Source of the DNA: an uncultured Acidobacteriota bacterium | Lineage (GTDB): Bacteria; Acidobacteriota; UBA6911 | Length of the DNA: 64,000 bases | NCBI GenBank assembly: GCA_964642735.1 | Contig: CAZXSV010000002.1 | Span: forward strand, 16,354 to 80,353 | Direction of reading: 5' to 3' | In this document: positions 7,068 to 64,000 of the stretch, piece after piece | How the letters are laid out: the number at the start of each line of letters is the position of its first letter | How positions within the stretch are numbered: the first letter of the stretch is position 1 | Program-made: the position numbers and the translations under genes | Notes under the pieces: generated by a model | Seen by the model: only the letters and a program-made list of their open reading frames with translations | Told to the model about the DNA's origin: nothing | The model's database searches: none

Positions 7068-7240
7068 TCCGCATTATTCATGAAGCTTTTACTGCGGCGA
7101 CGGATCCGGGCATGAATGCAAGGCGCATCTGTCAGCTTCTCCGCCGGCGCGACTCGATATCGACGATGGCGCTCTCGACTGTACGTCGAGGTCATGGAAC
7201 GCAACGCCGCCGCAGAATCCTCATGAATCCTGCGGGTTAA
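7064..7240. mobile_element. 177-bp MITE-like repeat, copy A (imperfect 22-bp TIRs, TTAA at both ends)
   Basis: Left end TTAATCCGCATTATTCATGAAG; right end CCTCATGAATCCTGCGGGTTAA. The sub-terminal sequence GAAGCTT[T/C]TACTG[C/T]GG...TCCGGGCATG is shared with copy B (22092-22205). The left TIR overlaps the terC stop codon. Confidence 0.7.
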
Positions 7241-17895: not shown

Positions 17896-17909
17896 TCGCC
17901 TGGTTCAGC

Positions 17910-20983: not shown

Positions 20984-20998
20984 GGAGCGCCCGTCGGT

Positions 20999-22091: not shown

Positions 22092-22205
22092 TTAACCCGC
22101 ATTATTCATGAAGCTTCTACTGTGGAAGGGCGGCTCCGGGCATGTCGACTGCGTCGCGCTCCGTCGGGCTCCTCGCTACGAACCTTCATGAATAATGCGG
22201 GTTGA
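22092..22205. mobile_element. 114-bp MITE-like repeat, copy B (near-perfect 20-bp TIRs)
   Basis: TTAACCCGCATTATTCATGAAG at 22092-22113 and CTTCATGAATAATGCGGGTTGA at 22185-22206. The right arm overlaps the last 10 codons (including the stop) of the cytidylyltransferase gene. Confidence 0.75.
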
Positions 22206-22916: not shown

Positions 22917-22941
22917 GCGTTTCTCTTTATCGGCGGTTGAA

Positions 22942-25788: not shown

Positions 25789-25896
25789 GCGCTCTCAATT
25801 CCAGAAGATGGACTTCCACTGCAACAACGCTTCCCTTTTGAATTCCCGTCTTTTCGCGCCGGAAGCGGGACGACCTAAGCGAAGACGCCAGCCGGA

Positions 25897-26997
25897 TCAT
25901 CGAACCGCCTTTATATCTGCAAGCAAACTCGTAAATATCAGGTCGCGAATTACCTGCGAAACTCTCTGGACGCCCAGTCCGTCGACTATTTGCCGCCCTC
26001 GCGAGGAGAGGCGATTTCGATCCATGACATTGAGTTCGAGGGAGGAAAGCCGCTCGGAAAGGCGAGCCGGATCCAGATCGTCTCCCGGCCCGAGAGAAAT
26101 GCAGGCGCCTGCATTGGAAAAAGCCGAGATGGCGCTCTGCTGGTAGGAGTCATAGGACAAAGCCATTAGAGGCGTGCCGGCGCACAGGGCTTCGTATGAG
26201 GCCAAGCCTCCGGCGGCGACGGCAAGATCCGCTTGAAAAAGAATTTGATGGATCGAGCCTGTTTCCCAACGGAAAGATACGGGCCCCCAATCTTTTATTT
26301 CCAGATCTTCCTGCCCCCAAGCTGCAAACCCGGGGGCGCCTACCGCTTCCAGCGGGCGATTCCAGAGCCGCAAACCCTCCAGGACTTTCAAGAAGTATTT
26401 CCTCGAATCGCCGCCTCCCAAATTGATGAAGACCGTGCCGATTTTTTCACGGATCTGCTTTTTCTTTTCATGGAGCAGACGATACTCAGGATCCAATATC
26501 ATATAGGGAACGCCGCCGTAAATAATCGCGTCCCTGCGGGATTTTTCAAAAAGAGGCAAAATGCTGCCGTCGATCAAAACGTCCGAAGGAAGTGGATTCA
26601 ATCCCAGGTCGTGAACGCTCACAACCGGAATTCTTTTGGCGTTTGCACAGGCGATCAGCCGATCCAGCCCGGCTGAAATCCTGGTGTCGATGAGAATCGC
26701 TGAAGGTTTCGGCAAAACCGACCAGCTTCGGTCCAAACCTTCGGTGAAAAAGCGGAAGCCAATGTTGGCCAGCCGCTCCTGGCTCCAGCGGTCCGTCGAA
26801 TCGACAAGAAATATCGGCAGGCAGCAATCAAGCAGCGTCCGGACAAGCGCCACCGATCTCTTCAAGTGACCGAAGCCGGCTTTGGGTCCGGCGCCGGTGC
26901 GCACCCAGATGGGGGCCTTTTCCTGCGGTCCGAATGTAGCTCGCGAATCTGTCAGACTTTTGGCGCCAGATAACATCATTTGACAAGTCCGTGACAA
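25897..26997 (-). CDS. PseG-like UDP-sugar hydrolase / GT28-type glycosyltransferase-fold protein
   Basis: N-terminal GFGHLKRSVALVRTL resembles the PseG GxGHxxR motif. C-terminal GGLASYEALCAGTPLMAL is GT-B/MurG-like. Confidence 0.6.
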   Translation of the reverse strand: MSRTCQMMLSGAKSLTDSRATFGPQEKAPIWVRTGAGPKAGFGHLKRSVALVRTLLDCCLPIFLVDSTDRWSQERLANIGFRFFTEGLDRSWSVLPKPSAILIDTRISAGLDRLIACANAKRIPVVSVHDLGLNPLPSDVLIDGSILPLFEKSRRDAIIYGGVPYMILDPEYRLLHEKKKQIREKIGTVFINLGGGDSRKYFLKVLEGLRLWNRPLEAVGAPGFAAWGQEDLEIKDWGPVSFRWETGSIHQILFQADLAVAAGGLASYEALCAGTPLMALSYDSYQQSAISAFSNAGACISLGPGDDLDPARLSERLSSLELNVMDRNRLSSRGRQIVDGLGVQRVSQVIRDLIFTSLLADIKAVR

Positions 26998-27003
26998 AAC
27001 CGT

Positions 27004-27639
27004 CTATTGGGCAATGCGCGCCTTCTCACAAATAATTTTGAACATTTCTCTCCAGACCGGAACCATTGGAAGGATTTCGTACTCGATCAGATCGGCAATA
27101 AGAGCGAAATCGCTTTTTTCTTGTGAATCGATCATCTGTTTTAAAACAGCGATAAACTTCCTGTGGTGCTCCCTGGCCGGGACGCCCTGAATGACAGCGT
27201 CTTCAAGCAGAATGTGGAAGCCGGTCTGCAACCTTTCCAGCAGCAGATTCAGCCAGTACAAACCCTCATAAAGCTGCCTTAGGTTTTCAAAAGATTCCGG
27301 CCCGGGTGAAAACTGGAAACTGCTTGCCAATGAGGGAGTTGCGGCTTCGATGCGATCGAGATAATCGAGGGCTTCCACGATCGAATCGCGAGCGATCTCG
27401 CCCATGGTGCCGGTATGGATCTCAATCTTCCCCCGCGCTTCCAGATGCTGCAGCATTTCGGATGAATTGCCGGACAGTTCGTCCGTCGTCAGCGGAATTC
27501 CATCGATGTGTATCTGACGGACAACAGCGTTCGGCGGCAGGCAGGCGTCTTCAATTTGCTTGAGGACATTGGCCAAAGAAGAGAGGTCCATTGGAGGCGG
27601 AACTTCTCTCTCGTCAACATAGAACTTGGTCATGAACAC
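27004..27639 (-). CDS. Hypothetical protein, first gene of the glycosylation operon
   Basis: 211-aa ORF, 6 nt from the next gene, divergent from flagellin 1. No family recognised. Confidence 0.5.
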   Translation of the reverse strand: MFMTKFYVDEREVPPPMDLSSLANVLKQIEDACLPPNAVVRQIHIDGIPLTTDELSGNSSEMLQHLEARGKIEIHTGTMGEIARDSIVEALDYLDRIEAATPSLASSFQFSPGPESFENLRQLYEGLYWLNLLLERLQTGFHILLEDAVIQGVPAREHHRKFIAVLKQMIDSQEKSDFALIADLIEYEILPMVPVWREMFKIICEKARIAQ

Positions 27640-27729
27640 CCCTTTTAAGGATCCAGGCGATTAAGGATCGCCAAACGACCTAAAGCAACTTAGGGGCCAG
27701 ACCCGTTAAAAAAAACTGCGTATTTTGAT

Positions 27730-27757
27730 TAAACTTCCCGGGACTTTCCGACGATAT
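27730..27757 (+). promoter_or_regulatory. Sigma28-type promoter of flagellin 1
   Basis: TAAA-N16-GACGATAT, ~145 nt upstream of the ATG. Confidence 0.65.
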
Positions 27758-27831
27758 GCTGCAGCGGAAGTTGTTAGATCGGAGGCATTGAGGAACCGAA
27801 ACAAATTCCGCAAACCTCCTGCAGGGCGGCA

Positions 27832-27899
27832 GGGCACGGATGCCCATCGGATCGCCTTCAGGAACACCGACCCATTCCCAAGAATTCACGGAGGAATTC
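27832..27899 (+). promoter_or_regulatory. Two putative CsrA-binding GGA hairpins in the flagellin 1 leader
   Basis: GGGCA-CGGA-TGCCC (27832-27845). GAATTC-ACGGAG-GAATTC (27882-27899) is the second, and its loop GGA overlaps the Shine-Dalgarno GGAGGA. Confidence 0.4.
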
Positions 27900-27902
27900 A
27901 TC

Positions 27903-28766
27903 ATGGGATCTTTCAGCATTCTCAACAACATTGCCGCTTTATACGCCCAGAGCCAGCTGGGTCTTTCAAATGCCAACCTAGCCCAGACCATAACCCGACT
28001 TTCTTCCGGAAAACGCGTCAATAGCGGCGCCGATGACGCCGCAGGATTGATGATCGCCGACAGTCTCAGGGCGAACGTCCGCGCCCTCGATCAATCGGTG
28101 CGAAACGCCAACGACTGCATCAGCGTCGGACAGATTGCGGACAGCGCTTTGCAAGAGATCACCAATATTCTTACACGCTCGGTCACGCTGGCGGAGGAAG
28201 CCGCAACCGGGACCATGGATTCGACCGCTCGCGCCGCTCTTCATGCAGAGTTCAGCGAGATTCAGGCGGAAATTGCGCGCATTGCAGTTCAGACTAATTT
28301 CAACGGAGTGCGATTATTCACTCCGGCAGGGCTCAACGGCTCTCTAAGCGCATTCGTCGGGGACATTTTCGGCCCCAGCTCGATTTCAGTGACAATCGAA
28401 ACCATTGATACGTCCGGAGACACGGTGACTTCGATTGGCGGTCAGAACCTTGCGTCCGTCAGCCTTGTCGATCAAAACGGGGCGGTCTCGGCCCTGACAA
28501 CCATACGGAATGCGCTGATCGCAGTCGCCAACAACCGAGCGGTGATCGGGGCCGGATCCAACCGGCTGCAATCCGCAGTGTCGGTCATGCAAAACCAATC
28601 CCTAAACACCCAGGGCGCTGAATCAACGATTCGCGATGCGAACATGGCGCAGGAAATCTCGAACCTCACCAAGTTCCAGATCTTATCGCAAACGGGAACG
28701 GCGGCGCTCGCGCAGGCCAACGCAAACGGCCAGACTATCCTGTCTTTGTTGCAGGGCATGAGGTAA
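27903..28766 (+). CDS. fliC: Flagellin (short, ~287 aa)
   Basis: MGSFSILNNIAALYAQSQL...RLSSGKRVNSGADDAAGL N-terminus, and C-terminus ...ANMAQEISNLTKFQILSQTGTAALAQANANGQTILSLLQG. SD GGAGGA upstream of ATG 27903. Confidence 0.95.
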   Translation: MGSFSILNNIAALYAQSQLGLSNANLAQTITRLSSGKRVNSGADDAAGLMIADSLRANVRALDQSVRNANDCISVGQIADSALQEITNILTRSVTLAEEAATGTMDSTARAALHAEFSEIQAEIARIAVQTNFNGVRLFTPAGLNGSLSAFVGDIFGPSSISVTIETIDTSGDTVTSIGGQNLASVSLVDQNGAVSALTTIRNALIAVANNRAVIGAGSNRLQSAVSVMQNQSLNTQGAESTIRDANMAQEISNLTKFQILSQTGTAALAQANANGQTILSLLQGMR

Positions 28767-28806
28767 TCCTCACCCGACCGGGATAGACTGCCGCAGCGGG
28801 CGCACA

Positions 28807-28852
28807 AAGCGGGCTCTTTGGAAAGGGGGAGCCCGCTTCCTCTCTATTTTTC
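28807..28852 (+). terminator. Rho-independent terminator of flagellin 1
   Basis: 10-bp stem AAGCGGGCTC / GAGCCCGCTT followed by a T-rich tract (CCTCTCTATTTTT). Confidence 0.8.
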
Positions 28853-28864
28853 TGCATTTTCCTC

Positions 28865-28891
28865 TAAGCTCCAATCCTCTTCGGACGATAA
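28865..28891 (+). promoter_or_regulatory. Sigma28-type promoter of flagellin 2
   Basis: TAAG-N15-GACGATAA, ~140 nt upstream of ATG 29031. Confidence 0.65.
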
Positions 28892-29030
28892 GCAGCAAGA
28901 ACCAAAAAATCGGAAGAAAAGCCTTTGGGCCTTCTACTGAGCTGAGCGACTATCCCCTCGCCGAGGCGGCCAGAGCCTTGATCTGGTTGTTTATGAATGG
29001 CGGTAGCTCGGATTCATGGAGGAATTCCAA

Positions 29031-29888
29031 ATGGGATCATTTAGCATCCTGAACAATATTTCTGGTTTGAATGCTCAAAACCAACTGAACGTCAACAATG
29101 TCAACCTTTCACGCACATTAATGCGTTTGTCTTCAGGCAAACGAATCAATTCCGGAGCGGATGATGCGGCGGGCTTGCAGATCGCGGACAGCTTGCGCGC
29201 GAACACTCAGGCTCTGAATCAAGCCGTAAGGAATGCAAACGACGGCATTTCGGTCGCTCAGATTGCCGACGGCGCACTGCAGGAAATCACCAATCTGTTG
29301 ACCCGCTCGGTCACGCTGGCCAACGAGGCGGCGACCGAAACAGTCGATTCCACAGGCCGCGCATCTCTGAACGCCGAATTCACCGCGATACAGGCTGAAA
29401 TCGCACGTATTGCGAACCAGACCAATTTCAACGGCTATGGCGTTTTTACGACCTCAGGCATAAATGGCAGCTTAAGCGTTTATGTCGGGGATCTCACGGG
29501 CGCCAGTTCCATCTCGGTCACGATCAGCACCATCACCACAAGCTCCGGAACCGTGACGAGCCTCGGAGGCCAGAACCTGGCCGCTGTGAACCTTACGAGC
29601 CAGGATAACGCCGCAACTTCTTTGACGACCATCAAAAACGCCTTAAACAGCGTTTCCAACATGCGGGCCGGCATCGGCGCCGGCATCAACAGGCTCCAGT
29701 CCGCAGTGGCAGTGCTGCAAACCCAGTCTCAGAATACCCAGGCTGCGGAATCCAGCATTCGGGACGCCAACATCGCTGAAGAAGTGGCAAACCTGACCAA
29801 GTACCAGATCCTGGCGCAGTCGGGAATCGCCGCTCTCGCTCAGGCTAATTCCAACAGCCAGACAGTCCTCGGTCTGCTCCGTGGATAG
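29031..29888 (+). CDS. fliC: Flagellin paralog (short, ~285 aa)
   Basis: MGSFSILNNISGLNAQNQL...SGKRINSGADDAAGL, and a conserved C-terminus ...ANIAEEVANLTKYQILAQSGIAALAQANSNSQTVLGLLRG. Confidence 0.95.
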   Translation: MGSFSILNNISGLNAQNQLNVNNVNLSRTLMRLSSGKRINSGADDAAGLQIADSLRANTQALNQAVRNANDGISVAQIADGALQEITNLLTRSVTLANEAATETVDSTGRASLNAEFTAIQAEIARIANQTNFNGYGVFTTSGINGSLSVYVGDLTGASSISVTISTITTSSGTVTSLGGQNLAAVNLTSQDNAATSLTTIKNALNSVSNMRAGIGAGINRLQSAVAVLQTQSQNTQAAESSIRDANIAEEVANLTKYQILAQSGIAALAQANSNSQTVLGLLRG

Positions 29889-29908
29889 CATTCAAACCCA
29901 ATGATGTG

Positions 29909-29942
29909 AAGGCGCGCTCAAAGGATGAGCGCGCCTTTTTCT
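29909..29942 (+). terminator. Rho-independent terminator of flagellin 2
   Basis: 12-bp stem AAGGCGCGCTCA / TGAGCGCGCCTT running into TTTTT. Confidence 0.85.
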
Positions 29943-30052
29943 CAAACCTGCCGCAAGAGTCCCGGTGAATTTCCATGCCGGGACTCCCGGCATATTCCCG
30001 ATCAGCGGCAGCGACTGCAAGATTCTTCCGCTCCGTCCCTTCCCCTTTTTCT

Positions 30053-30080
30053 TAAACCGGATTTGCGCCTGAGACGATAA
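30053..30080 (+). promoter_or_regulatory. Sigma28-type promoter upstream of maf
   Basis: TAAA-N16-GACGATAA. Confidence 0.6.
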
Positions 30081-30097
30081 ATTCATCGGATGCCGGT

Positions 30098-31996
30098 TTG
30101 CATTTCTGCCAACTGCAAAGGCAATATCAGGGAAAATATTCTTTGAGCCATCTCGACGCGAATTTGGACCTGCTCTCCTCCCGCCAACCGGGTTTGGCGG
30201 ACGCGTTGCGCTGCATCCAAACCAGCAACGTAGCGCTTTTCGAATCCGCCTCCGGAAATCCCACCGCGCGCTACGAGCGGAAAGGATCTTCATTCGCTCT
30301 GCACAGCCGCTATGACCCTGTTCGAGAAGCGCGGCAAATCGTCGCCAAGCAGGATGCCTCCGGCGCCGACTACCTGATACTTCTCGGGTTCGGCCTCGGC
30401 TATCTTTTGGATGCGCTCCTCGAAGGCGACAAAGCAAGATCGAATCGCTATTTCATCGTGGAATCGGACCTTGAAATTCTGAGGGCCGCCTTTGAAGCGC
30501 GCGACCTCTCGAGCCTGATTTCACTGCCTCATGTTCACTTCGCCTGGCCTGCTTGCGGACCGGATCTCGCCGAACAGTGGCGGCATTTCTTCGATCCGGT
30601 TGCAGCGCAGAAGAGCGCGTTCATCGCACATTTTCCCTGTTTCACGATAAATCCTTCATTCTTTAAAGCTGCAGCCGAAACCATCCAGAGTCAAACCTTC
30701 CAGATTTTCACCGATATCAATACGCTGGTCGCAAATTCGGAGATGTTTCTTGATAATTTTGTGAAGAATGTGCGCAAAGCAGCGCTCTCTCCCGGGATCG
30801 CCGGCTTCGCAGGCCACTTCGCCAAAGTCCCGGCAATTATCGTTTCCGCAGGGCCGTCTCTGGATAAAAACATTCACGAACTGCGGGGTTTTGAAGAAAA
30901 CGCTCTCATTCTTTCCACCGACACAGCCCTGAAACCGCTGCTGGCTGCCGGGATTGATCCGCATTTCATATTGACCGGCGATCCATCCCACGACAACTAT
31001 CTTCACCTTCAATCGGCGCCCACAAGGGATGCATATATTGTTGCAGAAGCTTCATCCTTTCCAGATGTTTTTGACGAATTTTCCGGCAAGATTTTAACAT
31101 GCACCTTTGAAAATTCGTCTTTGCGCTCCTTATCCGACCTTTTGGGCAACAAAGGCTCGCTTCGGGCATGGGGATCCGTAGCCACCGTAGCCTTGGATTT
31201 TGCCCTGCTTCTTCAGTGCGACCCAATCGTATTTGTCGGCCAGGATCTTGCTCATACCGATGGCAGAATATATTGCACAGGAATTATATTTGATGATGAA
31301 TGGTTCAATGATATATTTAATCCTTTAGATTGGCATTTGAAGCTGGAACAGCTGCGTTGTCGCCGGCGCTCCGTATCGGTCGAAGATGTATTCGGCCGCC
31401 CCGTGGAATCCACAGACAAGCTTACAGCTTATTGGAATTGGATCCAGAGGGTTATCCGGGACAATCCGAAAACCCGATATATCAACGCAACCGAAGGAGG
31501 GATTTTGAAAGATCATGTCGAAATCCTAAGCCTCCGCGATGCGCTCCATCGGGAGTGCGGGACAAACAGGCGTCTGCGCAAGCGCGTCGCCGAAATTTAT
31601 GCAGACGCTCAGAATAAAAACCTTGTCTATTCAGGCATTGACTTGTCTTTGCTGCTTCAAGAGTCCGTGGCCATCCGGGAAGCATTAAAGAAAGGCCAGC
31701 GGCTTTGTGAAACCGACAATTCATGCCCGATCCCGGAACGGATAAGCCGGCTGGAAGCTGCCAAGGAATCCATCTATCTTGCGCCTCACCTGGCCCCCCT
31801 GTTGGATTGTTTCAACCAGATGGGCAACGTCGCCTTTTTGCGCAAACGCAACACGGCCATGCAGCGCGCCGCAGATTCGAAATATTTCCCCGATCTTCTC
31901 GCAGTCTATTCGGAATATTTCGCCACCGTTAACGACGCGTTATGTAAAATCGACAAGGCTCTCGGCCGAATTGCTGCAAACCTCAACAATTGCTAG
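30098..31996 (+). CDS. maf: Motility-associated factor (Maf, DUF115/MptE-like) putative flagellin nonulosonic-acid glycosyltransferase
   Basis: PAIIVSAGPSLDKNIHELR...ILSTDTALKPLLAAGIDPHFILTGDPS is the Maf/DUF115 core. The TTG at 30098 lies only ~10 nt from the predicted TSS. The in-frame TTG at 30143 (AGGGA upstream) is an alternative start. Confidence 0.8.
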   Translation: MHFCQLQRQYQGKYSLSHLDANLDLLSSRQPGLADALRCIQTSNVALFESASGNPTARYERKGSSFALHSRYDPVREARQIVAKQDASGADYLILLGFGLGYLLDALLEGDKARSNRYFIVESDLEILRAAFEARDLSSLISLPHVHFAWPACGPDLAEQWRHFFDPVAAQKSAFIAHFPCFTINPSFFKAAAETIQSQTFQIFTDINTLVANSEMFLDNFVKNVRKAALSPGIAGFAGHFAKVPAIIVSAGPSLDKNIHELRGFEENALILSTDTALKPLLAAGIDPHFILTGDPSHDNYLHLQSAPTRDAYIVAEASSFPDVFDEFSGKILTCTFENSSLRSLSDLLGNKGSLRAWGSVATVALDFALLLQCDPIVFVGQDLAHTDGRIYCTGIIFDDEWFNDIFNPLDWHLKLEQLRCRRRSVSVEDVFGRPVESTDKLTAYWNWIQRVIRDNPKTRYINATEGGILKDHVEILSLRDALHRECGTNRRLRKRVAEIYADAQNKNLVYSGIDLSLLLQESVAIREALKKGQRLCETDNSCPIPERISRLEAAKESIYLAPHLAPLLDCFNQMGNVAFLRKRNTAMQRAADSKYFPDLLAVYSEYFATVNDALCKIDKALGRIAANLNNC

Positions 31997-46028: not shown

Positions 46029-46044
46029 TGCAAGTTTCATGCCA
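46029..46044 (-). promoter_or_regulatory. Sigma54-type -24/-12 promoter upstream of flgF
   Basis: Minus strand TGGCATGAAACTTGCA (TGGCA-N6-TTGC geometry), -12 element 48 nt upstream of the flgF ATG. Confidence 0.6.
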
Positions 46045-46143: not shown

Positions 46144-47037
46144 TCAATGTCCCACCGCATAATCGAGAGAGCACGCTCTTTCGGAAGCCGGGGCCATGTA
46201 TTCCACGGGCGTCGAGCTGTAACGGAAAAAGTGATGGTGGGATTCCGTGGCGAAATCCAGGCGCATCCAGAAAAAATCCGGAAGAAGCTCGGCACGTATG
46301 TCCTCGGCGCGGCTGTCTACGGCGCTGGCAATCATTTCGGCGCCGATCTCGATCAACTCGTCCAGCGAGCCGAATGTGGGCACATTCGACAAATCCAGCT
46401 CTTGGGGTTCATACCATTCGCCAAGCAGCTGTTGAATGACCGATTGATCGCCGACATAGGCCTCAATCCCCTTGCGAACCATACGCTGTATCGCCTGCTG
46501 CGAAATAAAATCGACAGGCGCGCATACGGCGACTCGAATGGAGTCCTGGTCGGCGCCGAATCCCACAGGAAGGAATCCGGAGCGCTTGGCGACCTTGCCG
46601 GGAATCATCCTAACGGCTTCCGCGTTGGCGTTCGAGTTCTTGAGGTTGATCAGAGGAAGGCCATATTGACGCGCTAAAGCCGCGGTGATTTGATGCTCTT
46701 CCACAAATCCGAGGCGAAGAAGCCATTCGCCCAGCCTGCCTTCCTGCGTCTGCTTTTGAAGCTTGATGGCTTCCTCAAGCTGCCCGCGGGTTAAATAGGT
46801 CGTTTGCATAAGGATGGTGCCCAGTTTTGGCCTCGGAATCCTGCGGTTTCTTTCGTGTTGCAGCCGGCGCCATTTTTCATTCAAATCATTTTCGAAATAG
46901 GCCATCAGGCAGGAGTCGCTGCAAAAAACATGCCCTTCGCACTGGGGCGGCCGCCGCCGGTTCAAAAAGACGCTGAACTCCGACCGAATGCGCGTACAAT
47001 CTTTGCGGTAGCATTGATATCTAGGCATACGAACCAA
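46144..47037 (-). CDS. Zinc-ribbon-like + MshEN/T2SSE_N-domain protein (putative c-di-GMP receptor, no ATPase domain)
   Basis: Residues 71-124 are KLGTILMQTTYLTRGQLEEAIKLQ-KQTQEG-RLGEWLLRLGFVEEHQITAALARQ, followed by YGLPLINL (T2SSE_N signature). N-terminal Cys cluster with FCSDSC. Confidence 0.7.
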   Translation of the reverse strand: MVRMPRYQCYRKDCTRIRSEFSVFLNRRRPPQCEGHVFCSDSCLMAYFENDLNEKWRRLQHERNRRIPRPKLGTILMQTTYLTRGQLEEAIKLQKQTQEGRLGEWLLRLGFVEEHQITAALARQYGLPLINLKNSNANAEAVRMIPGKVAKRSGFLPVGFGADQDSIRVAVCAPVDFISQQAIQRMVRKGIEAYVGDQSVIQQLLGEWYEPQELDLSNVPTFGSLDELIEIGAEMIASAVDSRAEDIRAELLPDFFWMRLDFATESHHHFFRYSSTPVEYMAPASERACSLDYAVGH

Positions 47038-47440
47038 CCTTTTCCTTGACTTTGGCGTTCTTTGGATTTTCCCAATTCATGTATTTGCCCAAATTCAGAA
47101 TGAGTTCGGCTTCTCCCGCCGGGGCTTTCAGACGCTTCACGATTTCGTCCAACCCCGCCCCCTGCCGCGCCAGCGCAAGGACCTGGTGCCTTCTCTCCAG
47201 CGGAAGACTGGGATCATGCGAAGGAACGCTCAATTCCATCAGCCTTTCTTCCAGGTTCTCGAGATTCGCGGAATATTTGCAGTGCGCTTTCATCTGCATT
47301 TCGACCATTTGAGCCATCGATCCTGAAATGTTCCGCAATTCGCATTCCAGAGTCCCGATTCTCAGAAAAAGCTTTTTCCTCATGGTGAAGTGAAGCACGC
47401 CTGCATGCAGAGCCAGGATGAAAAGGAATAAGTAAAGCAT
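47021..47440 (-). CDS. Membrane-anchored hypothetical protein, DUF2802-like C-terminus
   Basis: N-terminal TM (MLYLFLFILALHAGVL). The C-terminal VLALARQGAGLDEIVKRLKAPAGEAELILNL resembles, from memory, the DUF2802 helix-turn-helix-like signature found in flagellar loci. Confidence 0.5.
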   Translation of the reverse strand: MLYLFLFILALHAGVLHFTMRKKLFLRIGTLECELRNISGSMAQMVEMQMKAHCKYSANLENLEERLMELSVPSHDPSLPLERRHQVLALARQGAGLDEIVKRLKAPAGEAELILNLGKYMNWENPKNAKVKEKVGSYA

Positions 47441-47470: not shown

Positions 47471-48331
47471 TCACCCCCGGAGCCGCGCCGTATCGTGGAT
47501 TGAGGTTTGGACATCGGCAATGAGAGCGCTCATGTCCGAACCGGCGAGGCTCAAATATTCCGTGGCCGGAAGTTTTTCCAGACCGACGTCCCCATTCTTC
47601 TCAAAGCCGATTCCCATCGATATCATGACAAGATTCGCCAAGTTGACGATGCACGCCAGCCGCCGGTAGTTTGGAGCGGACAGCGGATCGTGATGCCAGC
47701 CCACCGCTTCGGCGAGTTGTGGCGGGAAATTCCACTTCCGTGCGAGCATCTCGCCCACATGCGCATGGGAAAAGCCCAAAGTCAAAAGCTCCAGCTGATG
47801 AAAACCGGCGTTCCCCTTGTAAACCTCGCTGACGATTTCGCTGTAAACGGATTGAAGATTCATCATCATCACCGGCTTGCCGATATCGTGCATCAGGCCG
47901 CAAACCATGGCCTCCTCGGGCTGTTCATATCCAATCCGTCTGGCAATGGCCCGGGCGGCCAGGGCCGCCCCCCAGGAATGTTCCGACATCAGCTTTGTTC
48001 CAAGATCTTTCGCCTGGCTGAAAACACGCTCCGCCGAAGCCGCCATCAGGATGGAGCATACGGTCTGAATTCCCAGCACAGAGACCGCATGAGAAACCGT
48101 CGAGACCTCGCATCTCAGGCAATACATGGCGGAATTGACGATTCTCAATATTTTGGCGGACAAGGCCTGGTCTTTCGCTATCAACAGCTGCAAGTCCCTC
48201 ACCGACACATCCGGATCAAGCGCCATCTCCATAGCCCTGACGACAATTCCGGGCAATGCGGGCAAATCCTGAACTTTCGCAATAAGTTCGTGAACTTTCG
48301 ACTCCGCGTGTTCCGTCTGCAGCGTTTGCAT
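47471..48331 (-). CDS. HDOD-domain protein
   Basis: LPALPGIVVRAMEMALDPDVSVRDLQLLIAKDQALSAKILRIVNSAMY...HSWGAALAAR...GLMHDIGK is the HDOD layout. Confidence 0.8.
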   Translation of the reverse strand: MQTLQTEHAESKVHELIAKVQDLPALPGIVVRAMEMALDPDVSVRDLQLLIAKDQALSAKILRIVNSAMYCLRCEVSTVSHAVSVLGIQTVCSILMAASAERVFSQAKDLGTKLMSEHSWGAALAARAIARRIGYEQPEEAMVCGLMHDIGKPVMMMNLQSVYSEIVSEVYKGNAGFHQLELLTLGFSHAHVGEMLARKWNFPPQLAEAVGWHHDPLSAPNYRRLACIVNLANLVMISMGIGFEKNGDVGLEKLPATEYLSLAGSDMSALIADVQTSIHDTARLRG

Positions 48332-48373: not shown

Positions 48374-48709
48374 TTATCCGAGCGAACGAATCCTTTCCGC
48401 TTTGCTTTCAACCTCAAGAATCCGCACTCCGTAATTGCCTTCCACCATGACGACTTCCCCTTTGGCGATGGGTTTGTGATTGACGATAATGGTCACCGGG
48501 TCGTTGACGGATTTGTCCAATTCGATGACAGATCCCGCCCCGAGCTTCAGGACGTCTTTTAGCTGCATCTCGGAGTGCCCGAATGAAACGCTCACCGGGA
48601 GCTCGACATCCAGGAGCATGTCGAGATTCCAATTTTCCGCAGCAGGGCTTGCCACGGCAGCCTCTTTTGCCTTCTCCGCAATCTTGGCGTTTTCATAGCT
48701 GTCTGCCAC
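48374..48709 (-). CDS. fliN: Flagellar switch protein FliN
   Basis: LLDVELPVSVSFGHSEMQLKDVLKLGAGSVIELDKSVNDPVTIIVN.KPIAKGEVV.VEGNYGVRI. Confidence 0.9.
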   Translation of the reverse strand: MADSYENAKIAEKAKEAAVASPAAENWNLDMLLDVELPVSVSFGHSEMQLKDVLKLGAGSVIELDKSVNDPVTIIVNHKPIAKGEVVMVEGNYGVRILEVESKAERIRSLG

Positions 48710-58583: not shown

Positions 58584-58901
58584 CTATGTCAGCGTATTGA
58601 AATCTGTTAGCCGAATCCCCGTGCTGCCTTCCAATTCAAGGACCTCGCCAAAAGCGATGAGGCGCTCATTGACCAAAATGTCGACGTTTTCTCCGGCGGA
58701 CTTTGGCAGTTCAACAATTGAATTCACTTGCAGCTGCAATATTTCGCGCACCTTCATATCGCACCTGGCAAGCTGAATGGCGATCTTCATCGGGACATTC
58801 AGGAAATGGCTCATCAGATCCATTTCCTTCTCCAATATTGCTTCTTTTGCGTTTGCGGTTTCGGACATGGCAGGCAATCTCTCGCTAGAGCTGAACGACA
58901 A
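58584..58901 (-). CDS. Second FliN/SpoA-family switch-complex paralog
   Basis: FLNVPMKIAIQLARCDMKVREILQLQVNSIVELPKSAGENVDILVNERLIAFGEVLELEGSTGIRL is a SpoA (FliN C-terminal) domain. Confidence 0.75.
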   Translation of the reverse strand: MSFSSSERLPAMSETANAKEAILEKEMDLMSHFLNVPMKIAIQLARCDMKVREILQLQVNSIVELPKSAGENVDILVNERLIAFGEVLELEGSTGIRLTDFNTLT

Positions 58902-59409
58902 AATCGACGATGTACACTTCGAGCACCTTGACGTCGGGAGCGACGGCGCCTATGCGTAAACGGATTTCATTGCGCAATTTGTCCTTGCCTTGCGGCGTCA
59001 ATATCTGGTCCGCTGTTTTAGAGCTAAGCAGCGAGATGATGGAGTCGCGAATGGACGCAATCGCTGCAGGGCTCTTGGCTTCTTCATCGGGCTCTTCTTC
59101 AAGGCCGAGGTAGAAAGTCGTTTTGACAAATCGAATCTCTTCCTTGTCCGCAAGGTTCACCAGGAAAGGATCCAAAGCCAGGGTGGCTTTGACCTGCGTC
59201 GCCTTCGGGCTCTTTTCAAATATCCCGATTTTGCCTTTGAGATAAGGGGCGGCGAAAAAAGCCGCACTGCCGAGCAGGACAAGAATGGCGGCGCCCGCCG
59301 CAATCAACAGCAGCTTGCGCGACTTGCCCGTGTTTTCAGTCCCGGGCTTGTTTTCGACAATCGGCTTGCTTTCCACCTTGGGTTTTGCCTTTACGTCCAT
59401 CGCACTCAT
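58885..59409 (-). CDS. fliL: Basal-body-associated protein FliL
   Basis: TM LLLIAAGAAILVLLGSAAFF, then LDPFLVNL...RFVKTTFYL...IRDSIISLLSSKT. ATG 59409 is preferred because the sigma54 element at 59455-59470 lies too close to the track start 59448. Confidence 0.8.
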   Translation of the reverse strand: MSAMDVKAKPKVESKPIVENKPGTENTGKSRKLLLIAAGAAILVLLGSAAFFAAPYLKGKIGIFEKSPKATQVKATLALDPFLVNLADKEEIRFVKTTFYLGLEEEPDEEAKSPAAIASIRDSIISLLSSKTADQILTPQGKDKLRNEIRLRIGAVAPDVKVLEVYIVDFVVQL

Positions 59410-59454
59410 GCACCGCCTCCAAAAGCGTAGGTTCACTCCCGAGAGCACCTAGAA

Positions 59455-59470
59455 TGCAAGTCACATGCCA
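59455..59470 (-). promoter_or_regulatory. Sigma54-type -24/-12 promoter upstream of fliL
   Basis: Minus strand TGGCATGTGACTTGCA, -12 element 47 nt upstream of ATG 59409. Confidence 0.6.
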
Positions 59471-59633
59471 AGCGAAAAAATGCCGACCCAAAGCTAAAAG
59501 CGTGGTTTCGAGGGGGAAAAAGGGGCTGAAGGGATCCAAGAGGGCTTGAAATGGCCTGAATAGTCGGGCAATTTCAAAATGCGGCGGGGCGCAGTGTCAA
59601 ACGATCTCACTTGTTTGACAAATTCCTGACGTC

Positions 59634-60800
59634 TTAGCAGCCGAATTCGCTTTCTTCGGCGAACCAAGCCTGGTTCTTGCCGGCCTTCTTTGCTCTATAG
59701 AGCGCATTGTCGGCACGCAGGATGATTTCCCGGGCGTCGAGGCATACAAAAGTCGTGCAGCAGGCCACCCCGATGCTGAGGGTCCTGTGCATAGGAACCG
59801 AGCCAAGGGTGAATTCATGGGAAGAAAAGGTTGAAAGCAGGTTTTCAGCGACTCTGGCCGCGCCGGCATTGTTGGTGCGCGGCAGAATGACCGTGAATTC
59901 CTCGCCGCCGTATCTGGCCACAAAATCGGTCACTCGAAGGGCGCGCTTCAGAAGCATTCCGGTCTGCCGCAAGAATTCGTCGCCAGCCTGATGTCCATAG
60001 ACGTCGTTAATTTGCTTGAAATCGTCGATGTCCATCATCAAGCAGCTGAAAATTTCGCCGTAGCGTCGCGCCCGTGCGATTTCCATATCGAGCCGTTCGA
60101 ACAGCCGGCGTTTGTTGAACAATCCCGTGCACTCGTCGGTATGGGCCAGTTCCTGCAGTTTTTCGTTCAATTGAGTGAGGCGCAGATCGTGATCTTTCAA
60201 GCGGGCATTGGCCGTCGCCAACTCCTGCTTGGTAAGAACATTGTCCAGCGACGAGGAAAGATGCGCCGCTACCAGCGAACCAAGATGGTATTCAATCTCA
60301 TCAAAGCGATGAGGCCGGTTCGAAATCATCTCAATGCAGCCGACGACCTTTCCCAGGGCGGCAAAAGGAAACGCCATTATGGAACGCCACGGAGCGTCGC
60401 CCGCAGCTTCGGTGCATTTTTTCTGTTTTTTTGATGAATGCGTGTCGGGCATCCAAAGGGGAGTGCCGGACCGGATGACGCTGCCCGCGATTCCGCTGTC
60501 CAGGGGGACGATCTCCTCCTCTTTCGGAACGTCCGGCCCCGAAAGCTTCATCTTCCGATAGCGAGCCTCATCGACAACGCAAAGCCTCGTCTGGTCGTCC
60601 GGGAAGCATTCCTGAAAATAGGATCGCAAAATGTTCTGGAGATGCTCAACGTCCCGGGCGCAGTTCATGGAATTGGAAAGCGCGTTAATGGCCAAAAGGC
60701 GCCGGTAGAGATCCACCGCGCGTTCCTGGGATGGAACGGTCTGCCGAAGCAGGTCTAAAAGGCCTTTCCCACGAGTAATAGCCGTCGCCGCAATTGCCAT
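59634..60800 (-). CDS. GAF-domain diguanylate cyclase (GGDEF, GGEEF active site plus RxxD I-site)
   Basis: N-terminal GAF-like region. C-terminal DECTGLFNKRRL, DIDDFKQINDVYGHQAGD, and RVTD-x5-GGEEF. Confidence 0.9.
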   Translation of the reverse strand: MAIAATAITRGKGLLDLLRQTVPSQERAVDLYRRLLAINALSNSMNCARDVEHLQNILRSYFQECFPDDQTRLCVVDEARYRKMKLSGPDVPKEEEIVPLDSGIAGSVIRSGTPLWMPDTHSSKKQKKCTEAAGDAPWRSIMAFPFAALGKVVGCIEMISNRPHRFDEIEYHLGSLVAAHLSSSLDNVLTKQELATANARLKDHDLRLTQLNEKLQELAHTDECTGLFNKRRLFERLDMEIARARRYGEIFSCLMMDIDDFKQINDVYGHQAGDEFLRQTGMLLKRALRVTDFVARYGGEEFTVILPRTNNAGAARVAENLLSTFSSHEFTLGSVPMHRTLSIGVACCTTFVCLDAREIILRADNALYRAKKAGKNQAWFAEESEFGC

Positions 60801-60820
60801 AGGCCGCCCTTTTTGCGATA

Positions 60821-60913
60821 TTAACCCGCATTATTCATGAAGGTTCAATGCTCGTTGTTCTCTGTCGTTGCGGCTCGGGATTCATTGATTCTTCAATGAA
60901 TCCCGAGCCTTGA
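60821..60913. mobile_element. 93-bp MITE-like repeat, copy C (degenerate right end), containing a perfect 16-bp hairpin
   Basis: Left end TTAACCCGCATTATTCATGAAGG is identical to copy B. Right end CTTCAATGAATCCCGAGCCTTGA. Hairpin GCTCGGGATTCATTGA-TTCT-TCAATGAATCCCGAGC at 60873-60908. The element fills the flgE-dgc spacer. Confidence 0.6.
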
Positions 60914-60915
60914 AG

Positions 60916-62151
60916 CTATCGTTTCAAATTCAAGGAATCCTGGTAAAGCTCGTCTGTCGTCGTGATGATTTTGGAGTTCGCCTGATAGGCCCGCTGTGCG
61001 ACGATCAGGTTTACAAACTCCTGAGCCATATCGACGTTGGACTGCTCCAGGGAAGCCCCGACCACCGTGCCGCGCCCGCCGGATCCCGCCGCGCCGACGG
61101 AAGGATCTCCCGAGCTTGGAAAAGAGACGTAAGTGCTCCCGTTATATTTCTGAAGCCCTTCGACATTCGGGAAATCCGCTATAGCCAACTGCGCCAATTG
61201 CACGGAATCGCCGTTTTCGGAAACGCCTATGATGACGCCTGCGCTGTCAATGTTTATTTCCTTGAGAGCGCTGGCCCCCGAACCATTCTGAGAGGGCGTG
61301 AAAGTGGACGTTCCGGTGGCTTGACTCGTGACGATGGGGATGCCGTTTGCGTCTCTCAGTCCGAGCGACAAGGACATATCGGCCGCTCCGCTGGCGAGCC
61401 CGGCAATGCTCAAAACAGGATTGTCGACGGGCGCGCTCAAAATCCCGGAACTGTCAAAAACGAGGGCGCCGCCGCCAATTTGCACTGGTGGATCATCGAT
61501 TCCCCCCCCGAGATCGGCCGCCGGTATTGTCGCGGTCCAATCCCATGCGGTGCCTGATCCGTTAAAATTGATGGTCAGGTTGTGCGTCACTCCCAGCGAA
61601 TCATAGACCTGCACGCTGGTCGCCCCGCGAGTGGAAGTGGAGTCGAGATTGCCCGGAATGCTTATTTCCGTCGTCGCCATCGCCGGCATGATCTGCCCTT
61701 TGCTGATCTCGATCGGGGTCAAAACGCCGCTGTTGTCGATTTGTCCATTAGTCGCCATATAGCCCAGGAGCGGATATCCATCGGCGCTAACAAGACCGCC
61801 ATTCCTGTCAAATTCAAATTTGCCCGAACGGGTGTACCCCTGGCCTCCTTCCATCGCGACCACAAAAAAACCATTCCCGTTGATGGCGGCGTCCGTCGAT
61901 TTCCCCGTATAGCTTACCGTGCCCTGATTGGTGGAATGCGTAATTCCATTCAAAGTGCTGCCCAGCCCAAATACGATCGGATTGCCGTTCGTGCTCGTGC
62001 CTGAAAGCCCCGCCAGCAACTCGGCGAAATTTGCCTTCCCGGCCTTAAAAGAGGTGGTATTCATATTTGCAAGGTTGTCGCCAATGATATTGATTGCCAA
62101 GCTGTTGTTGTTCAATCCGGTCAAGGCAGTGTAAAATGAAGTCAGTGGCAT
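60916..62151 (-). CDS. flgE: Flagellar hook protein FlgE
   Basis: MPLTSFYTALTGLNNNSLAINIIGDNLANMNTTSFK ... LEQSNVDMAQEFVNLIVAQRAYQANSKII. Confidence 0.9.
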   Translation of the reverse strand: MPLTSFYTALTGLNNNSLAINIIGDNLANMNTTSFKAGKANFAELLAGLSGTSTNGNPIVFGLGSTLNGITHSTNQGTVSYTGKSTDAAINGNGFFVVAMEGGQGYTRSGKFEFDRNGGLVSADGYPLLGYMATNGQIDNSGVLTPIEISKGQIMPAMATTEISIPGNLDSTSTRGATSVQVYDSLGVTHNLTINFNGSGTAWDWTATIPAADLGGGIDDPPVQIGGGALVFDSSGILSAPVDNPVLSIAGLASGAADMSLSLGLRDANGIPIVTSQATGTSTFTPSQNGSGASALKEINIDSAGVIIGVSENGDSVQLAQLAIADFPNVEGLQKYNGSTYVSFPSSGDPSVGAAGSGGRGTVVGASLEQSNVDMAQEFVNLIVAQRAYQANSKIITTTDELYQDSLNLKR

Positions 62152-62217: not shown

Positions 62218-62496
62218 CTAAGCGGTCACAGCGGCGCTTTCAGCTGCCGCGCCGACAAGCTTCGAAACGCCCTGATTGATGGATATGAGCTGCTCCAGCG
62301 AGCTGAAAGTCGCCAGCTGTGCGATAAACTGCTGGTTGTCGACCGGATTCATTGGATCCTGGTTTTGAAGCTGCGCAACGAGAAGCTCAAGGAACTGGTT
62401 CGTTCCAATTTCGTTGGCAACCTTGGCAACAGCGCTGGAAGTCTGCAGTGAAGCTTGTTGACTCGATCCTGTGGCGTCAATGCTGCTCATTCTCAA
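62218..62496 (-). CDS. flgD: Hook-cap protein FlgD, N-terminal-domain-only form (92 aa)
   Basis: GTNQFLELLVAQLQNQDPMNPVDNQQFIAQLATFSSLEQL is the FlgD N-terminal signature. The ORF stops soon after it. Confidence 0.75.
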   Translation of the reverse strand: MRMSSIDATGSSQQASLQTSSAVAKVANEIGTNQFLELLVAQLQNQDPMNPVDNQQFIAQLATFSSLEQLISINQGVSKLVGAAAESAAVTA

Positions 62497-62567: not shown

Positions 62568-62583
62568 TGCACAATTCGTGCCA
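62568..62583 (-). promoter_or_regulatory. Sigma54-type -24/-12 promoter upstream of flgD-flgE
   Basis: Minus strand TGGCACGAATTGTGCA, -12 element 72 nt upstream of the flgD ATG. Confidence 0.55.
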
Positions 62584-62693: not shown

Positions 62694-64000
62694 TTATGCA
62701 ATGGTGTGAAACCGGCTTCTGGGGCCGGAGAACGACGTCAGGCCGTCGGTCACAATCTCTTCCGCCTGGTCAGGAATCCCTGATTCCATGGATCGAGCGG
62801 ATTTTCGCGTTTCTCCCCCATGGCTGCCCCCGCCGGCATGCCCGAACGGCGACGGCTGGCCCGACTCCTGATGCGGATCAAAAACTTCTTGAACTGAGAT
62901 CTGGAGGCGTTCCACTTTCAAGCCCTGGTCCTGAAGAGTCTGCTGAAGGATATGCAGGTTGTTTTCCAGGTAGTTTCGGACGCTTCCCGATTCGACCGCG
63001 ATGCGCGCAACAACGCCGTTGACTGTTGACACCGCCCTTATTTCCAAACTGCCAAGGTTTTCCGGCTTCAATTGAATGCGTATTTCCCCTCTTCCATTCC
63101 GAAGCTGCAATTGGATTTTTTCAGCGACTTGGTATACGAGCTCGCCAGGCCGAGCGGAAGCGGCCGGATCGGAATTTGAAAGGGGCTGGGTGGCGACTGC
63201 GAAGCGATCCAAGCCGGAAGAAACAGCCGCCGTTTTCTCCCGGGAATGCTCCACTCGACCGGTACCGGACTTCATCAAATCCGAACCATCCGATTTCTTT
63301 CGCTGCTCCATAATTGCCGAAAACTGATCAGGGGCGCGCTCCGGATCCGACTGGGACCCTCCCTCATCTTTTTCTTCGGAGAATCTTTTGCCTGAGGCTT
63401 CCGGCCCCTTGAGAACGCCGGCCAAAGGATTTTCCTTCGGCAAGTCGCCAGAATCAGGCGCTGAAATACTGTTGTCTTCCGAAATCAATAGATTCGCGGC
63501 CGCAAGGGCGTCAGTCCGCGGGATCGATTCCCGGCTTGTTTCCCGGATTGCCGGCGCCGTCCCGGTCGGATCCGCTTGGAAACGTGCGTCCGCCGAGTCT
63601 GTGAAGGTCGATTCGCTTGCAGCGGCGATTCCCGAAACCGCAGGATGTTTGTCGCGACTCATGGCGGGACTGGCGGATAGGATTCCTTGTCGCAAATCGG
63701 CGTTCGGTTCCAACTCGGGCGTCGTCGCTTTTGGGGCGGAATTTTCAGCAAATCCCTTTTGTTTCGAGCCTTCCGCATCCTGCGCTTCCCTTTGCCGGGG
63801 ATTCAAAACAGCCGCAGCATTGTCCTGAATTCCGGCGGTTTCGACCGGGGAGTCGGCGGAAGATGGGATAGCTTTGCCGTGCATTGCAATATTGCGTTCT
63901 GATAGGCCGGCCTCATGCTGGAGGGAATCCACCGTGCTTTCAAAGAGTGTCTGATTTGCAGTCGAAACGCCTGCGCTGTTTCCGGGGACGGAATCCGCTT
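62694..64000 (-). CDS. fliK: Hook-length control protein FliK (C-terminal Flg_hook domain); probably 5'-truncated by the window edge
   Basis: C-terminal GEIRIQLKPENLGSLEIRAVSTVNGVVARIAVESGSVRNYLENNLHILQQTLQDQGLKVERLQISV. The track start is a GTG at 63932, but the frame stays open (own check) to position 64000. Confidence 0.75.
   Translation of the reverse strand, partial: ADSVPGNSAGVSTANQTLFESTVDSLQHEAGLSERNIAMHGKAIPSSADSPVETAGIQDNAAAVLNPRQREAQDAEGSKQKGFAENSAPKATTPELEPNADLRQGILSASPAMSRDKHPAVSGIAAASESTFTDSADARFQADPTGTAPAIRETSRESIPRTDALAAANLLISEDNSISAPDSGDLPKENPLAGVLKGPEASGKRFSEEKDEGGSQSDPERAPDQFSAIMEQRKKSDGSDLMKSGTGRVEHSREKTAAVSSGLDRFAVATQPLSNSDPAASARPGELVYQVAEKIQLQLRNGRGEIRIQLKPENLGSLEIRAVSTVNGVVARIAVESGSVRNYLENNLHILQQTLQDQGLKVERLQISVQEVFDPHQESGQPSPFGHAGGGSHGGETRKSARSMESGIPDQAEEIVTDGLTSFSGPRSRFHTIA

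Follow-up and report, generated by a model that had tools for sequence, protein, structure and literature searches.

A stretch of 64,000 nt of DNA from an uncultured Acidobacteriota bacterium (assembly GCA_964642735.1, contig CAZXSV010000002.1, positions 16,354 to 80,353), referred to below as the window, carries a flagellar gene cluster in which a gene for a GGDEF-domain protein, here called dgc, lies between the hook protein gene flgE and fliL. The gene order in this part of the window is fliG-H-I-J-K, flgD, flgE, the slot occupied by dgc, fliL, fliN-O-P-Q-R, flhB, flhA, flhF, flhG and fliA. The gene is on the same strand as flgD and flgE; the flgE stop codon occupies 60916-60918, the ATG of dgc is at 60800 and the spacer between them measures 115 nt, as a first-pass annotation of the sequence had stated. 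The enzyme itself is an ordinary GGDEF protein; the arrangement is what is new. With a cyclase gene at this position, the building of the flagellum looks wired to cyclic di-GMP (c-di-GMP), a signal that normally restrains motility.

The product of dgc was analyzed with Pfam, which assigned residues 77-185 to GAF_2 (2e-12, 47.9 bits) and residues 219-377 to GGDEF (PF00990, 1.6e-44), the latter with 152 bits against a cut-off of 23.8 and with profile positions 1-161 of 161 covered. TIGR00254 gave 168 bits (cut-off 37.4), and NCBIfam offered only a generic domain model, so the protein does not belong to a named family. The segment RVTDFVARYGGEEF contains the intact GGEEF site and the RxxD site five residues upstream that had been noticed in the first-pass annotation: R289-V-T-D292 is followed by FVARY and then by GGEEF at residues 298-302. 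The metal- and GTP-binding positions are also retained (MDIDDFKQIND, RAKKAGKN). Among the 120 best homologs, which are 60-84% identical and about 397 residues long, GGEEF and RxxD stand at the canonical spacing in all 120, DxDxFKxxND is found in 112 and AKxxGKN in 114. The GGDEF domain could be aligned over its entire length with cyclases of known structure, among them PleD, WspR and DgcR. Because the motifs recur in all 120 orthologs and the GGDEF domain aligns over its full length with active cyclases, dgc looks catalytically competent and product-inhibitable, in agreement with the earlier reading.

An AlphaFold model of the monomer was built from 45 orthologs (predicted local distance difference test score, pLDDT, 85). 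It consists of a GAF domain at about residues 14-165, a continuous 51-residue helix at residues 168-218 and a GGDEF domain at residues 219-380. The helix of the monomer model resembles the coiled-coil linkers of 5llw, 6ttr and 4zmu. The best full-length structural match was Dcsbis/PA2771 (4zmu), and the isolated GGDEF domain superposed on active cyclases at 1.2-1.8 A. Since no hydrophobic segment was found in the sequence, the product looks cytoplasmic. The start codon is secure, as M1-A2 is invariant among orthologs.

The gene had been described in the first-pass annotation as inserted between flgE and the fliL promoter. A comparison of the flgE-fliL interval in relatives contradicted the implied novelty in this genome. 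The order flgD-flgE-dgc-fliL-fliN-fliO-fliP was present in 15 of the 15 ortholog contigs with readable context, which represent 12 distinct gene versions from Acidobacteriota with 58-84% identity. DNA was available for L001, L002, L081, L082/L083, L084-L086, L087, L088, L172 and L173, and the context of the closest relatives (P0002, P0003 and P0004, 82-84% identity) was taken from gene tables only. Identity to the window copy is 58-84% for the cyclase, 45-74% for FlgE and 76-85% for FliP, so that the three proteins fall in the same range; the closest relative is 84% identical. Furthermore, the G+C content of dgc matches that of the neighboring genes. A recent horizontal insertion was rejected on the grounds of the conserved position and the neighbor-like G+C content, and dgc is an old part of the cluster that has apparently been passed on vertically in a broad range of Acidobacteriota. 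The fla/che-type order of Bacillus has flgE adjoining fliL. Judged against that order, dgc is an addition, but an old one.

One relative lacks the gene. In the FlgE cluster P0354 (L170/L171; ENA ERZ27247996, ERZ27248265), which bears the source label Acidobacteriia, the order is otherwise identical, a tblastn search of the locus gave no trace of the cyclase and fliL begins 339 nt after flgE. A neighbor-joining tree was calculated from concatenated FlgE, FliP, FliN, FliL and FlgD and was midpoint-rooted. L170 adjoined the dgc-bearing L172, and in 200 of 200 midpoint-rooted bootstrap trees it was nested among dgc-bearing lineages and never stood alone at the root. Because of this nesting, secondary loss appears more economical than late gain, and ancestral absence in L170 is not favored, a provisional judgement since the tree has no true outgroup.

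Promoters were sought with the sigma54 pattern TGGCAY-N5-TTGCW, allowing at most one mismatch. The two elements proposed earlier, one before flgD and one before fliL, were both found (Table 1). Elements at these two places, the second lying after dgc, were present in 11 of 11 related loci, and five relatives have one before flhA. No sigma54 element was found between flgE and dgc in any of the 11 loci. The earlier statement that the spacer contains no sigma70-, sigma28- or sigma54-like promoter was upheld by scans of its minus strand in the window, which gave neither a sigma54 nor a sigma28 motif, nor any sigma70 motif whose boxes are 16-18 nt apart; only a weak TTGAAC-N19-TAATAT was found. Similarly, the 450 nt before dgc in 10 loci contained no sigma28 or sigma54 motif and, except for a weak match in L082, no sigma70 motif with at least 9 of 12 positions. 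A local FliA-type consensus, TAAR-N15-GACGATA, was derived from the regions upstream of flagellin genes, motA and flgM; it had no match upstream of dgc, and a sigma28 promoter for the gene was rejected. Also rejected were a sigma54-like TGGCAT that forms part of the hairpins in L082 and L084, where the -12 spacing or sequence is wrong and conservation is lacking, and the sigma54 matches within the dgc coding sequence of L001 and L172, which are homologous codons (LASYFQE). The flgE-dgc spacers measure 53-115 nt across loci, with both genes on the same strand, and their sequences are not conserved. Each dgc is preceded by a purine-rich, Shine-Dalgarno-like stretch 6-12 nt before the ATG.

A stem-loop follows directly after flgE in the window. 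The first 75 nt after the gene gave a folding energy of -31.7 kcal/mol (z = -6.7), and the 130-nt region gave z = -5.4. The tail of the stem, GCAACGACAG, contains no T, and the U-tract that marks a Rho-independent terminator is absent. The terminator scan did not call this stem-loop, and it found no canonical terminator between flgE and dgc. Stems of 10-17 bp and of unrelated sequence occur at the same place in L082, L084, L088, L172 and L173, none of them with a U-tract, and weaker stems follow flgE in L002, L081 and the dgc-less L170. Besides the window, at least six loci, the dgc-less one among them, have a clear stem-loop here, but the 53-nt spacer of L001 has no significant hairpin. An Rfam search of the whole window gave no match, neither to a known RNA for the spacer hairpin nor to a c-di-GMP riboswitch in the cluster. 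Because the structure is maintained while the sequence turns over, the comparison suggests that the stem-loop is functional. It could act as a partial terminator, or as a 3'-end stabilizer that keeps the hook message high and the cyclase message low. Read-through from flgE into dgc is probably attenuated.

The spacer had also been described as almost entirely a copy of a miniature inverted-repeat transposable element (MITE). One exact 20-nt terminal repeat was indeed found, and AACCCGCATTATTCATGAAG has five copies in the 64-kb window against 0.01 expected. Two complete MITE-like elements, of 173 nt and 110 nt, lie elsewhere in the window. However, the flgE-dgc spacer contains no second terminal repeat, and its 17-bp palindrome is unique in the window, the arms sharing only a GGATTCAT core with a variant of the repeat. 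None of the eight ortholog spacers that were read at the sequence level has the repeat. As far as these comparisons show, part of the spacer thus stems from a mobile element, and only in this lineage; the spacer is not a full copy. As a separate observation, the MITE-like element B sits between motA and a CMP-sugar synthase gene, beside a FliA-type promoter.

Co-transcription of flgD, flgE and dgc is favored because sigma54 elements flank the genes in 11 loci, because, one weak sigma70 match aside, no promoter-like motif precedes dgc in 10 loci and because dgc is squeezed up to the fliL regulatory region. The simplest reading is transcription of all three genes from the element before flgD, probably with attenuation on the way, and it is considered reasonably likely. 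The first-pass annotation had proposed the same sigma54 unit, and the pattern in 11 of 11 loci fits that proposal; what it had overlooked is the stem-loop after flgE, so that dgc may receive only read-through.

A 294-residue protein of the same cluster is the best candidate for a c-di-GMP reader. Its gene is the last of the run fliA-fliM-fliN-HDOD-DUF2802, and the sigma54 element of flgF comes next. The protein has four invariant N-terminal cysteines (C6, C11, C36 and C40) and a complete MshEN domain, with 48.5 bits for PF05157 (cut-off 23.1) and 50.6 bits for NCBIfam NF053729, 'c-di-GMP_motif', over residues 68-121 (cut-off 38). The MshEN motif has the consensus RLGxxLLxxGLLxxxxLxxxLxxQ. The tandem 24-residue motifs of the Cys4-MshEN protein, KLGTILMQTTYLTRGQLEEAIKLQ (KLGTILMQ...Q) and RLGEWLLRLGFVEEHQITAALARQ, are both conserved in a 10-sequence alignment; the strict tandem pattern was present in 83 of 120 homologs and motif 2 in 109 of 120. 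Two such 24-residue motifs are described as the c-di-GMP binding determinant of MshEN (PMC8669469). The protein also aligned with the N-domains of MshE, PilB and PilF in the PDB, c-di-GMP complexes included. In a collection of 5.8 billion proteins, the family numbers only 230 members, which come from the same clade and are annotated as 'hypothetical'. The gene context is conserved in L168 and L169, and in a 6.9-Mb genome, where the ranges of L081 and L168 overlap, dgc and the MshEN gene share both the chromosome and the cluster. In about 10 further cases, a contig with the MshEN gene has the length of a contig with a dgc ortholog. In relatives, the stop codon of the DUF2802 gene overlaps the start of the MshEN gene by 8 nt.

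A candidate c-di-GMP phosphodiesterase, a response regulator with an HD-GYP domain, is encoded about 1.2 kb from motB/motA, with a gene for a GNAT acetyltransferase between them. Its motifs, HDVGK ... HQERWDGKGYP, look intact. The NCBIfam model for NosR-family response regulator c-di-GMP phosphodiesterases gave 230 bits, below its cut-off of 400. The GTG start of this open reading frame (ORF) is probably too far upstream, since the receiver domain begins only at residue 69.

An inverted repeat, TTGTCAA-N13-TTGACA, follows at the downstream end of dgc; it is unique within the window, and its extended form is GTCArGAATTTGTCAA...TTTGACAC. Of 10 loci that carry dgc, 9 have the repeat at the dgc stop codon or across it, and in most of them its sequence also encodes the final codons and the stop. 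The exception is L001, in which an additional stretch of about 1 kb parts dgc from fliL and the repeat was not found. The dgc-less L170 carries the repeat (at about 6327-6354 of that locus), 84 nt after flgE. Because the repeat is conserved where no ORF covers it, in L170 and L088, it is a DNA element, most plausibly an activator-binding site of the fliL promoter. The 3' end of dgc runs into this repeat, so there is no room for a separate downstream regulatory region. The possibility was considered that the conserved C-terminal tail of the cyclase is a feature of the protein; a DNA element explains the conservation better, as the repeat is retained in the locus without dgc and, in L088, falls beyond the ORF. 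In the window, dgc ends 9 residues early (...FGC-TAA), and relatives run 9-20 residues longer, with YEDVRNLSNM in the four closest. The lost tail can still be read in frame downstream, as DVRNLSNK followed by TGA.

The explanation that best fits these data is that dgc encodes a soluble, dimer-type GAF-helix-GGDEF diguanylate cyclase and that dgc is a long-established, conserved part of the flagellar cluster in a wide range of Acidobacteriota. The gene would be the last of a sigma54-dependent flgD-flgE-dgc unit and would have no promoter of its own. The stem-loop after flgE would pass only a fraction of the hook transcripts into dgc, which has its own purine-rich candidate ribosome-binding site, and little cyclase would be made, with none in cells that do not express the hook-stage genes. 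A ligand or signal of the GAF domain would gate the output of the enzyme, and product inhibition at the RxxD site (I-site) would cap it. The c-di-GMP produced would most likely act locally on the flagellum. As reader, the best candidate would be the Cys4-MshEN protein, which is specific to the clade and whose gene lies with fliA, fliM and fliN; the likely eraser would be the HD-GYP response regulator near motAB. Taken as a whole, from operon cyclase and attenuation to local c-di-GMP, MshEN reader and HD-GYP eraser, the explanation is regarded as the probable one, with considerable room for doubt. A complete dedicated circuit, with the writer in the hook operon, a non-PilZ Cys4-MshEN reader in the switch operon and an HD-GYP eraser near the stators, is a tentative suggestion from the sequence. 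No firmer is the proposal that such a writer-reader-eraser circuit, a local module inherited with the organelle, would tie regulation of the motor or of flagellar number to the hook-basal-body stage. The idea of the first-pass annotation that the cyclase could couple the hook stage to c-di-GMP production, as a timer or brake, is conjectural, like any effect on motility.

Several observations speak against this explanation. The sigma54 pattern with up to one mismatch was found 5 times in the window against 4.0 expected, which is not above chance; the weight of the sigma54 argument lies in the two exact matches, in their placement before flagellar operons and, above all, in the conservation in 11 of 11 loci. 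The weak TTGAAC-N19-TAATAT is the only such candidate in the window spacer and lies partly inside the MITE repeat. Promoter consensus sequences and terminators without a U-tract are uncharacterized in Acidobacteriota, so a promoter could escape the motif scans. The flgDE transcript may in fact end at the stem-loop. What connects dgc with the MshEN gene is co-location and co-distribution only. The lineage that keeps its flagellar cluster without dgc indicates that the gene is dispensable for having flagella. Lastly, the premature stop, which removes the conserved 9-residue tail, and the disturbance of the spacer by a mobile element raise the possibility that the window allele is impaired.

One alternative is that dgc is an independent transcription unit, with the stem-loop terminating the hook operon and an unrecognized promoter in the spacer, here perhaps supplied by the MITE terminal repeat. 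In most loci flgE is directly followed by a strong stem-loop; L170, which has no dgc, is among them, and there the stem-loop must mark the end of flgDE. Moreover, in the window the ATG is preceded, at a distance of 17 nt, by the TTGAAC-N19-TAATAT, L082 has a sigma70 match at 9 of 12 positions, and a promoter would fit into spacers of 53-115 nt. However, no stem-loop has a U-tract, the unconserved spacers are without any sigma70-like match in 8 of 10 cases, and the spacer of L001, the shortest at 53 nt, has no significant hairpin. Additionally, same-strand adjacency conserved over wide divergence is typical of operons. Independent transcription is judged to be a minority possibility, though one of some substance.

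A different role for the cyclase was also considered, namely transcriptional feedback, in which c-di-GMP would bind a FleQ/FlrA-like sigma54 activator, shut the hook-class promoters after they have fired and so limit flagellar number. The flagellar promoters are of the sigma54 type here, and dgc ends inside a conserved inverted repeat that resembles an activator site. In Pseudomonas and Vibrio, c-di-GMP is reported to act via the sigma54 activators FleQ and FlrA (PMC13432727; bioRxiv 10.1101/2021.08.29.457346). However, neither an activator gene nor rpoN is present in the window, no activator gene is present in the flanks that were fetched, and a more direct candidate for the c-di-GMP target is available in the co-conserved MshEN protein. 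Feedback of this kind appears unlikely.

It is also conceivable that dgc has merely hitch-hiked in the cluster, the cyclase feeding a general c-di-GMP pool, for example for matrix or adhesion, with no specific flagellar role. GGDEF proteins occur in large numbers and often have pleiotropic effects, and one lineage lost dgc yet kept its flagellar genes. On the other hand, the position is invariant in 15 of 15 ortholog contigs, up to about 42% protein divergence, and two more c-di-GMP-related genes, those for the MshEN and HDOD proteins, are fixed in the cluster. Scans of genome and metagenome contigs with back-translated cyclase patterns, which were generic GGDEF motifs, gave 160 loci, only 3 of them orthologs. 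Taken as a rough background, about 150 unrelated loci included only two (L020 and L071) with a flagellar gene in their flanks, a weak FlgD-like match about 5 kb away. Hitch-hiking is given a low probability. Least probable is decay of the window allele, by a nonsense change that cut the conserved tail and by a mobile element and 17-bp palindrome, both absent from the eight ortholog spacers read, that separate the gene from its promoter, since the remaining 388-residue frame is intact with all catalytic residues and 84% identity to its closest relative, and the missing tail lies beyond the GGDEF fold (residues 219-380) and differs anyway in L088 and L173.

The cyclase gene and the features around it are listed in Table 1 together with other features of the window. 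On the minus strand, dgc is followed by fliL, fliN, fliO, fliP, fliQ, fliR, flhB, flhA, flhF, flhG, fliA, fliM and a second fliN, then by the HDOD, DUF2802 and MshEN genes, and finally by flgF, flgG, flgA, flgH, flgI, flgJ, flgN, flgK and flgL. In L168 and L169, the two relatives read that far, FliW and CsrA come after flgL. Further upstream in the window are fliS, fliD, two flagellin genes, a flagellin-glycosylation island, motA/motB and the HD-GYP response regulator. FlgD is short throughout the group, with orthologs of only 83-131 residues that consist of the N-terminal domain alone, and no separate ORF was found for the usual C-terminal domains. For fliL, the ATG at 59409, after GGAGG, is a likelier start than the GTG at 59448 chosen by the ORF finder, which is 7 nt from the -12 element. 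The two FliN-type genes, one after fliL and one after fliM, encode 105 and 111 residues, and both are kept in relatives. The glycosylation island lies between motA and fliD and encodes NeuB, ATP-grasp, nucleotidyl- and cytidylyltransferase and Maf/MptE-like proteins.

Table 1. Positions of the cyclase gene dgc, its proposed regulatory elements and other features of the 64,000-nt window
Feature	Positions	Strand	Basis or remark
fliK	62694-63932	-	
sigma54-type -24/-12 element before flgD	62568-62583	-	TGGCACGAATTGTGCA; one mismatch; proposed promoter of flgD-flgE-dgc
flgD, hook cap	62218-62496	-	Pfam FlgD 2.3e-24; short form of 92 residues, N-terminal domain only
flgE, hook protein	60916-62151	-	411 residues; Pfam Flg_bb_rod, LlgE_F_G_D1, FlgE_D2, Flg_bbr_C
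flgE-dgc spacer	60801-60915		
Stem-loop after flgE	60872-60909	-	perfect 17-bp stem, 4-nt loop, 6 nt past flgE stop; candidate attenuator or 3'-end stabilizer of the hook mRNA
Solo terminal inverted repeat	60823-60842	+	AACCCGCATTATTCATGAAG; exact 20 nt; MITE-like family; outer end faces dgc start
dgc, GAF-helix-GGDEF	59634-60800	-	388 residues; ORF and Pfam
GAF domain of dgc (model)	60306-60761		
Helix of dgc (model)	60147-60299		
GGDEF domain of dgc (model)	59661-60146		
RxxD of dgc	59925-59936		
GGEEF of dgc	59895-59909		
Lost dgc tail	59607-59636	-	TGA at 59607-59609
Inverted repeat TTGTCAA-N13-TTGACA	59595-59621	-	candidate enhancer (activator-binding site); 125 nt upstream of fliL -24 element
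sigma54-type element before fliL	59455-59470	-	TGGCATGTGACTTGCA; exact match
fliL	58885-59409	-	Pfam FliL 5.8e-21; first gene of the next unit, fliL-fliN-fliO-fliP-fliQ-fliR-flhB
FliN-type gene after fliL	58584-58901	-	
FliN-type gene after fliM	48374-48709	-	
HDOD-domain protein	47471-48331	-	Pfam HDOD 2.6e-58; conserved in L168, L169
DUF2802/DUF6115 protein	47021-47440	-	conserved between fliN and MshEN gene
Cys4-MshEN protein, candidate c-di-GMP reader	46144-47028	-	Pfam MshEN 8.7e-13; L168/L169 10001-10885
sigma54 element before flgF	46029-46044		exact match
FliA-type promoters before two flagellin genes, fliD, motA and the flgM region	27730 (+), 22077 (-), 40473 (-), ~28900 (+), ~32050 (+)		
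Flagellin genes	27840-28766, 29016-29888		
Flagellin-glycosylation island	22176-31996		
Complete MITE-like elements	7066-7238, 22094-22203		
motB/motA	20186-21826		
GNAT acetyltransferase	18986-19936		
Response regulator with HD-GYP, candidate c-di-GMP phosphodiesterase	17733-19028	+	Pfam Response_reg and HD_5 5.3e-33

That c-di-GMP controls flagella is well known, but in model systems the genes for the cyclases are dispersed over the genome. It is an open question how a messenger that acts globally attains specificity at the flagellum, and a cyclase fixed in the flagellar cluster, with a candidate non-PilZ reader fixed in the switch operon, speaks to it. If the proposed explanation is correct, the locus would be a natural case of 'local' signaling hard-wired by gene organization, in Acidobacteriota, a phylum whose motility has scarcely been studied. 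If dgc were instead transcribed independently and fed the general pool, it would be an ordinary GGDEF gene in an unusual place. Searches of open-access full texts yielded no cyclase as a conserved member of the hook operon (flgDE) and no MshEN flagellar effector.

The flgE-fliL slot of fla/che clusters hosts lineage-specific motor accessories, namely swrD/ylzI in B. subtilis and flbD in spirochetes. The order in the window matches the fla/che order, but these are motor-tuning proteins of about 70 residues and not signaling enzymes. For the protein itself, the closest known counterpart in architecture is Dcsbis of P. aeruginosa (PA2771, 4zmu), which is also GAF-helix-GGDEF and is the best full-length match in both sequence and fold. 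However, the identity is 24% and the TM-score 0.40-0.46, the domain orientation being different, and Dcsbis is not an ortholog. We know of no flagellar context for Dcsbis.

PdeH (YhjH) and YcgR belong to the sigma28 class-3 flagellar regulon of E. coli and Salmonella. As in the window, c-di-GMP components are there expressed within the flagellar hierarchy, which ties the second messenger to flagellum synthesis. However, they are a phosphodiesterase and a PilZ brake, of the late class and encoded outside the structural operons, whereas here a cyclase, of opposite enzymatic sign, would be expressed in a sigma54 hook-stage unit. YcgR is discussed in PMC13432727. PilZ effectors encoded in flagellar clusters are also known: FlgZ in Pseudomonas (PMC3913639), MotL in Shewanella putrefaciens (PMC8203827) and FilZ in Pseudoalteromonas (PMC10304486). 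In these cases too, c-di-GMP genes are fixed in flagellar clusters and act on that flagellar system, but the proteins are PilZ readers; the cluster described here encodes a predicted writer, and the candidate reader is an MshEN-domain protein.

A link to a flagellar sigma factor has been described for A5904_0969 of Acidithiobacillus caldus, an RpoF (sigma28)-dependent PAS/GAF diguanylate cyclase/phosphodiesterase (PMC6543871). Like the dgc product it is a GAF-containing c-di-GMP enzyme, and its transcription depends on a flagellar sigma factor; however, it belongs to the sigma28 regulon, is a dual-domain enzyme and is not reported inside a hook operon. In Vibrio cholerae, incomplete biogenesis of the flagellum is described as triggering c-di-GMP signaling, and the status of assembly is tied to the motile-to-sessile decision (PMC7098655). 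The stage of assembly is linked there to c-di-GMP production, as is proposed here, but in the acidobacterial cluster the link would be hard-wired by operon membership.

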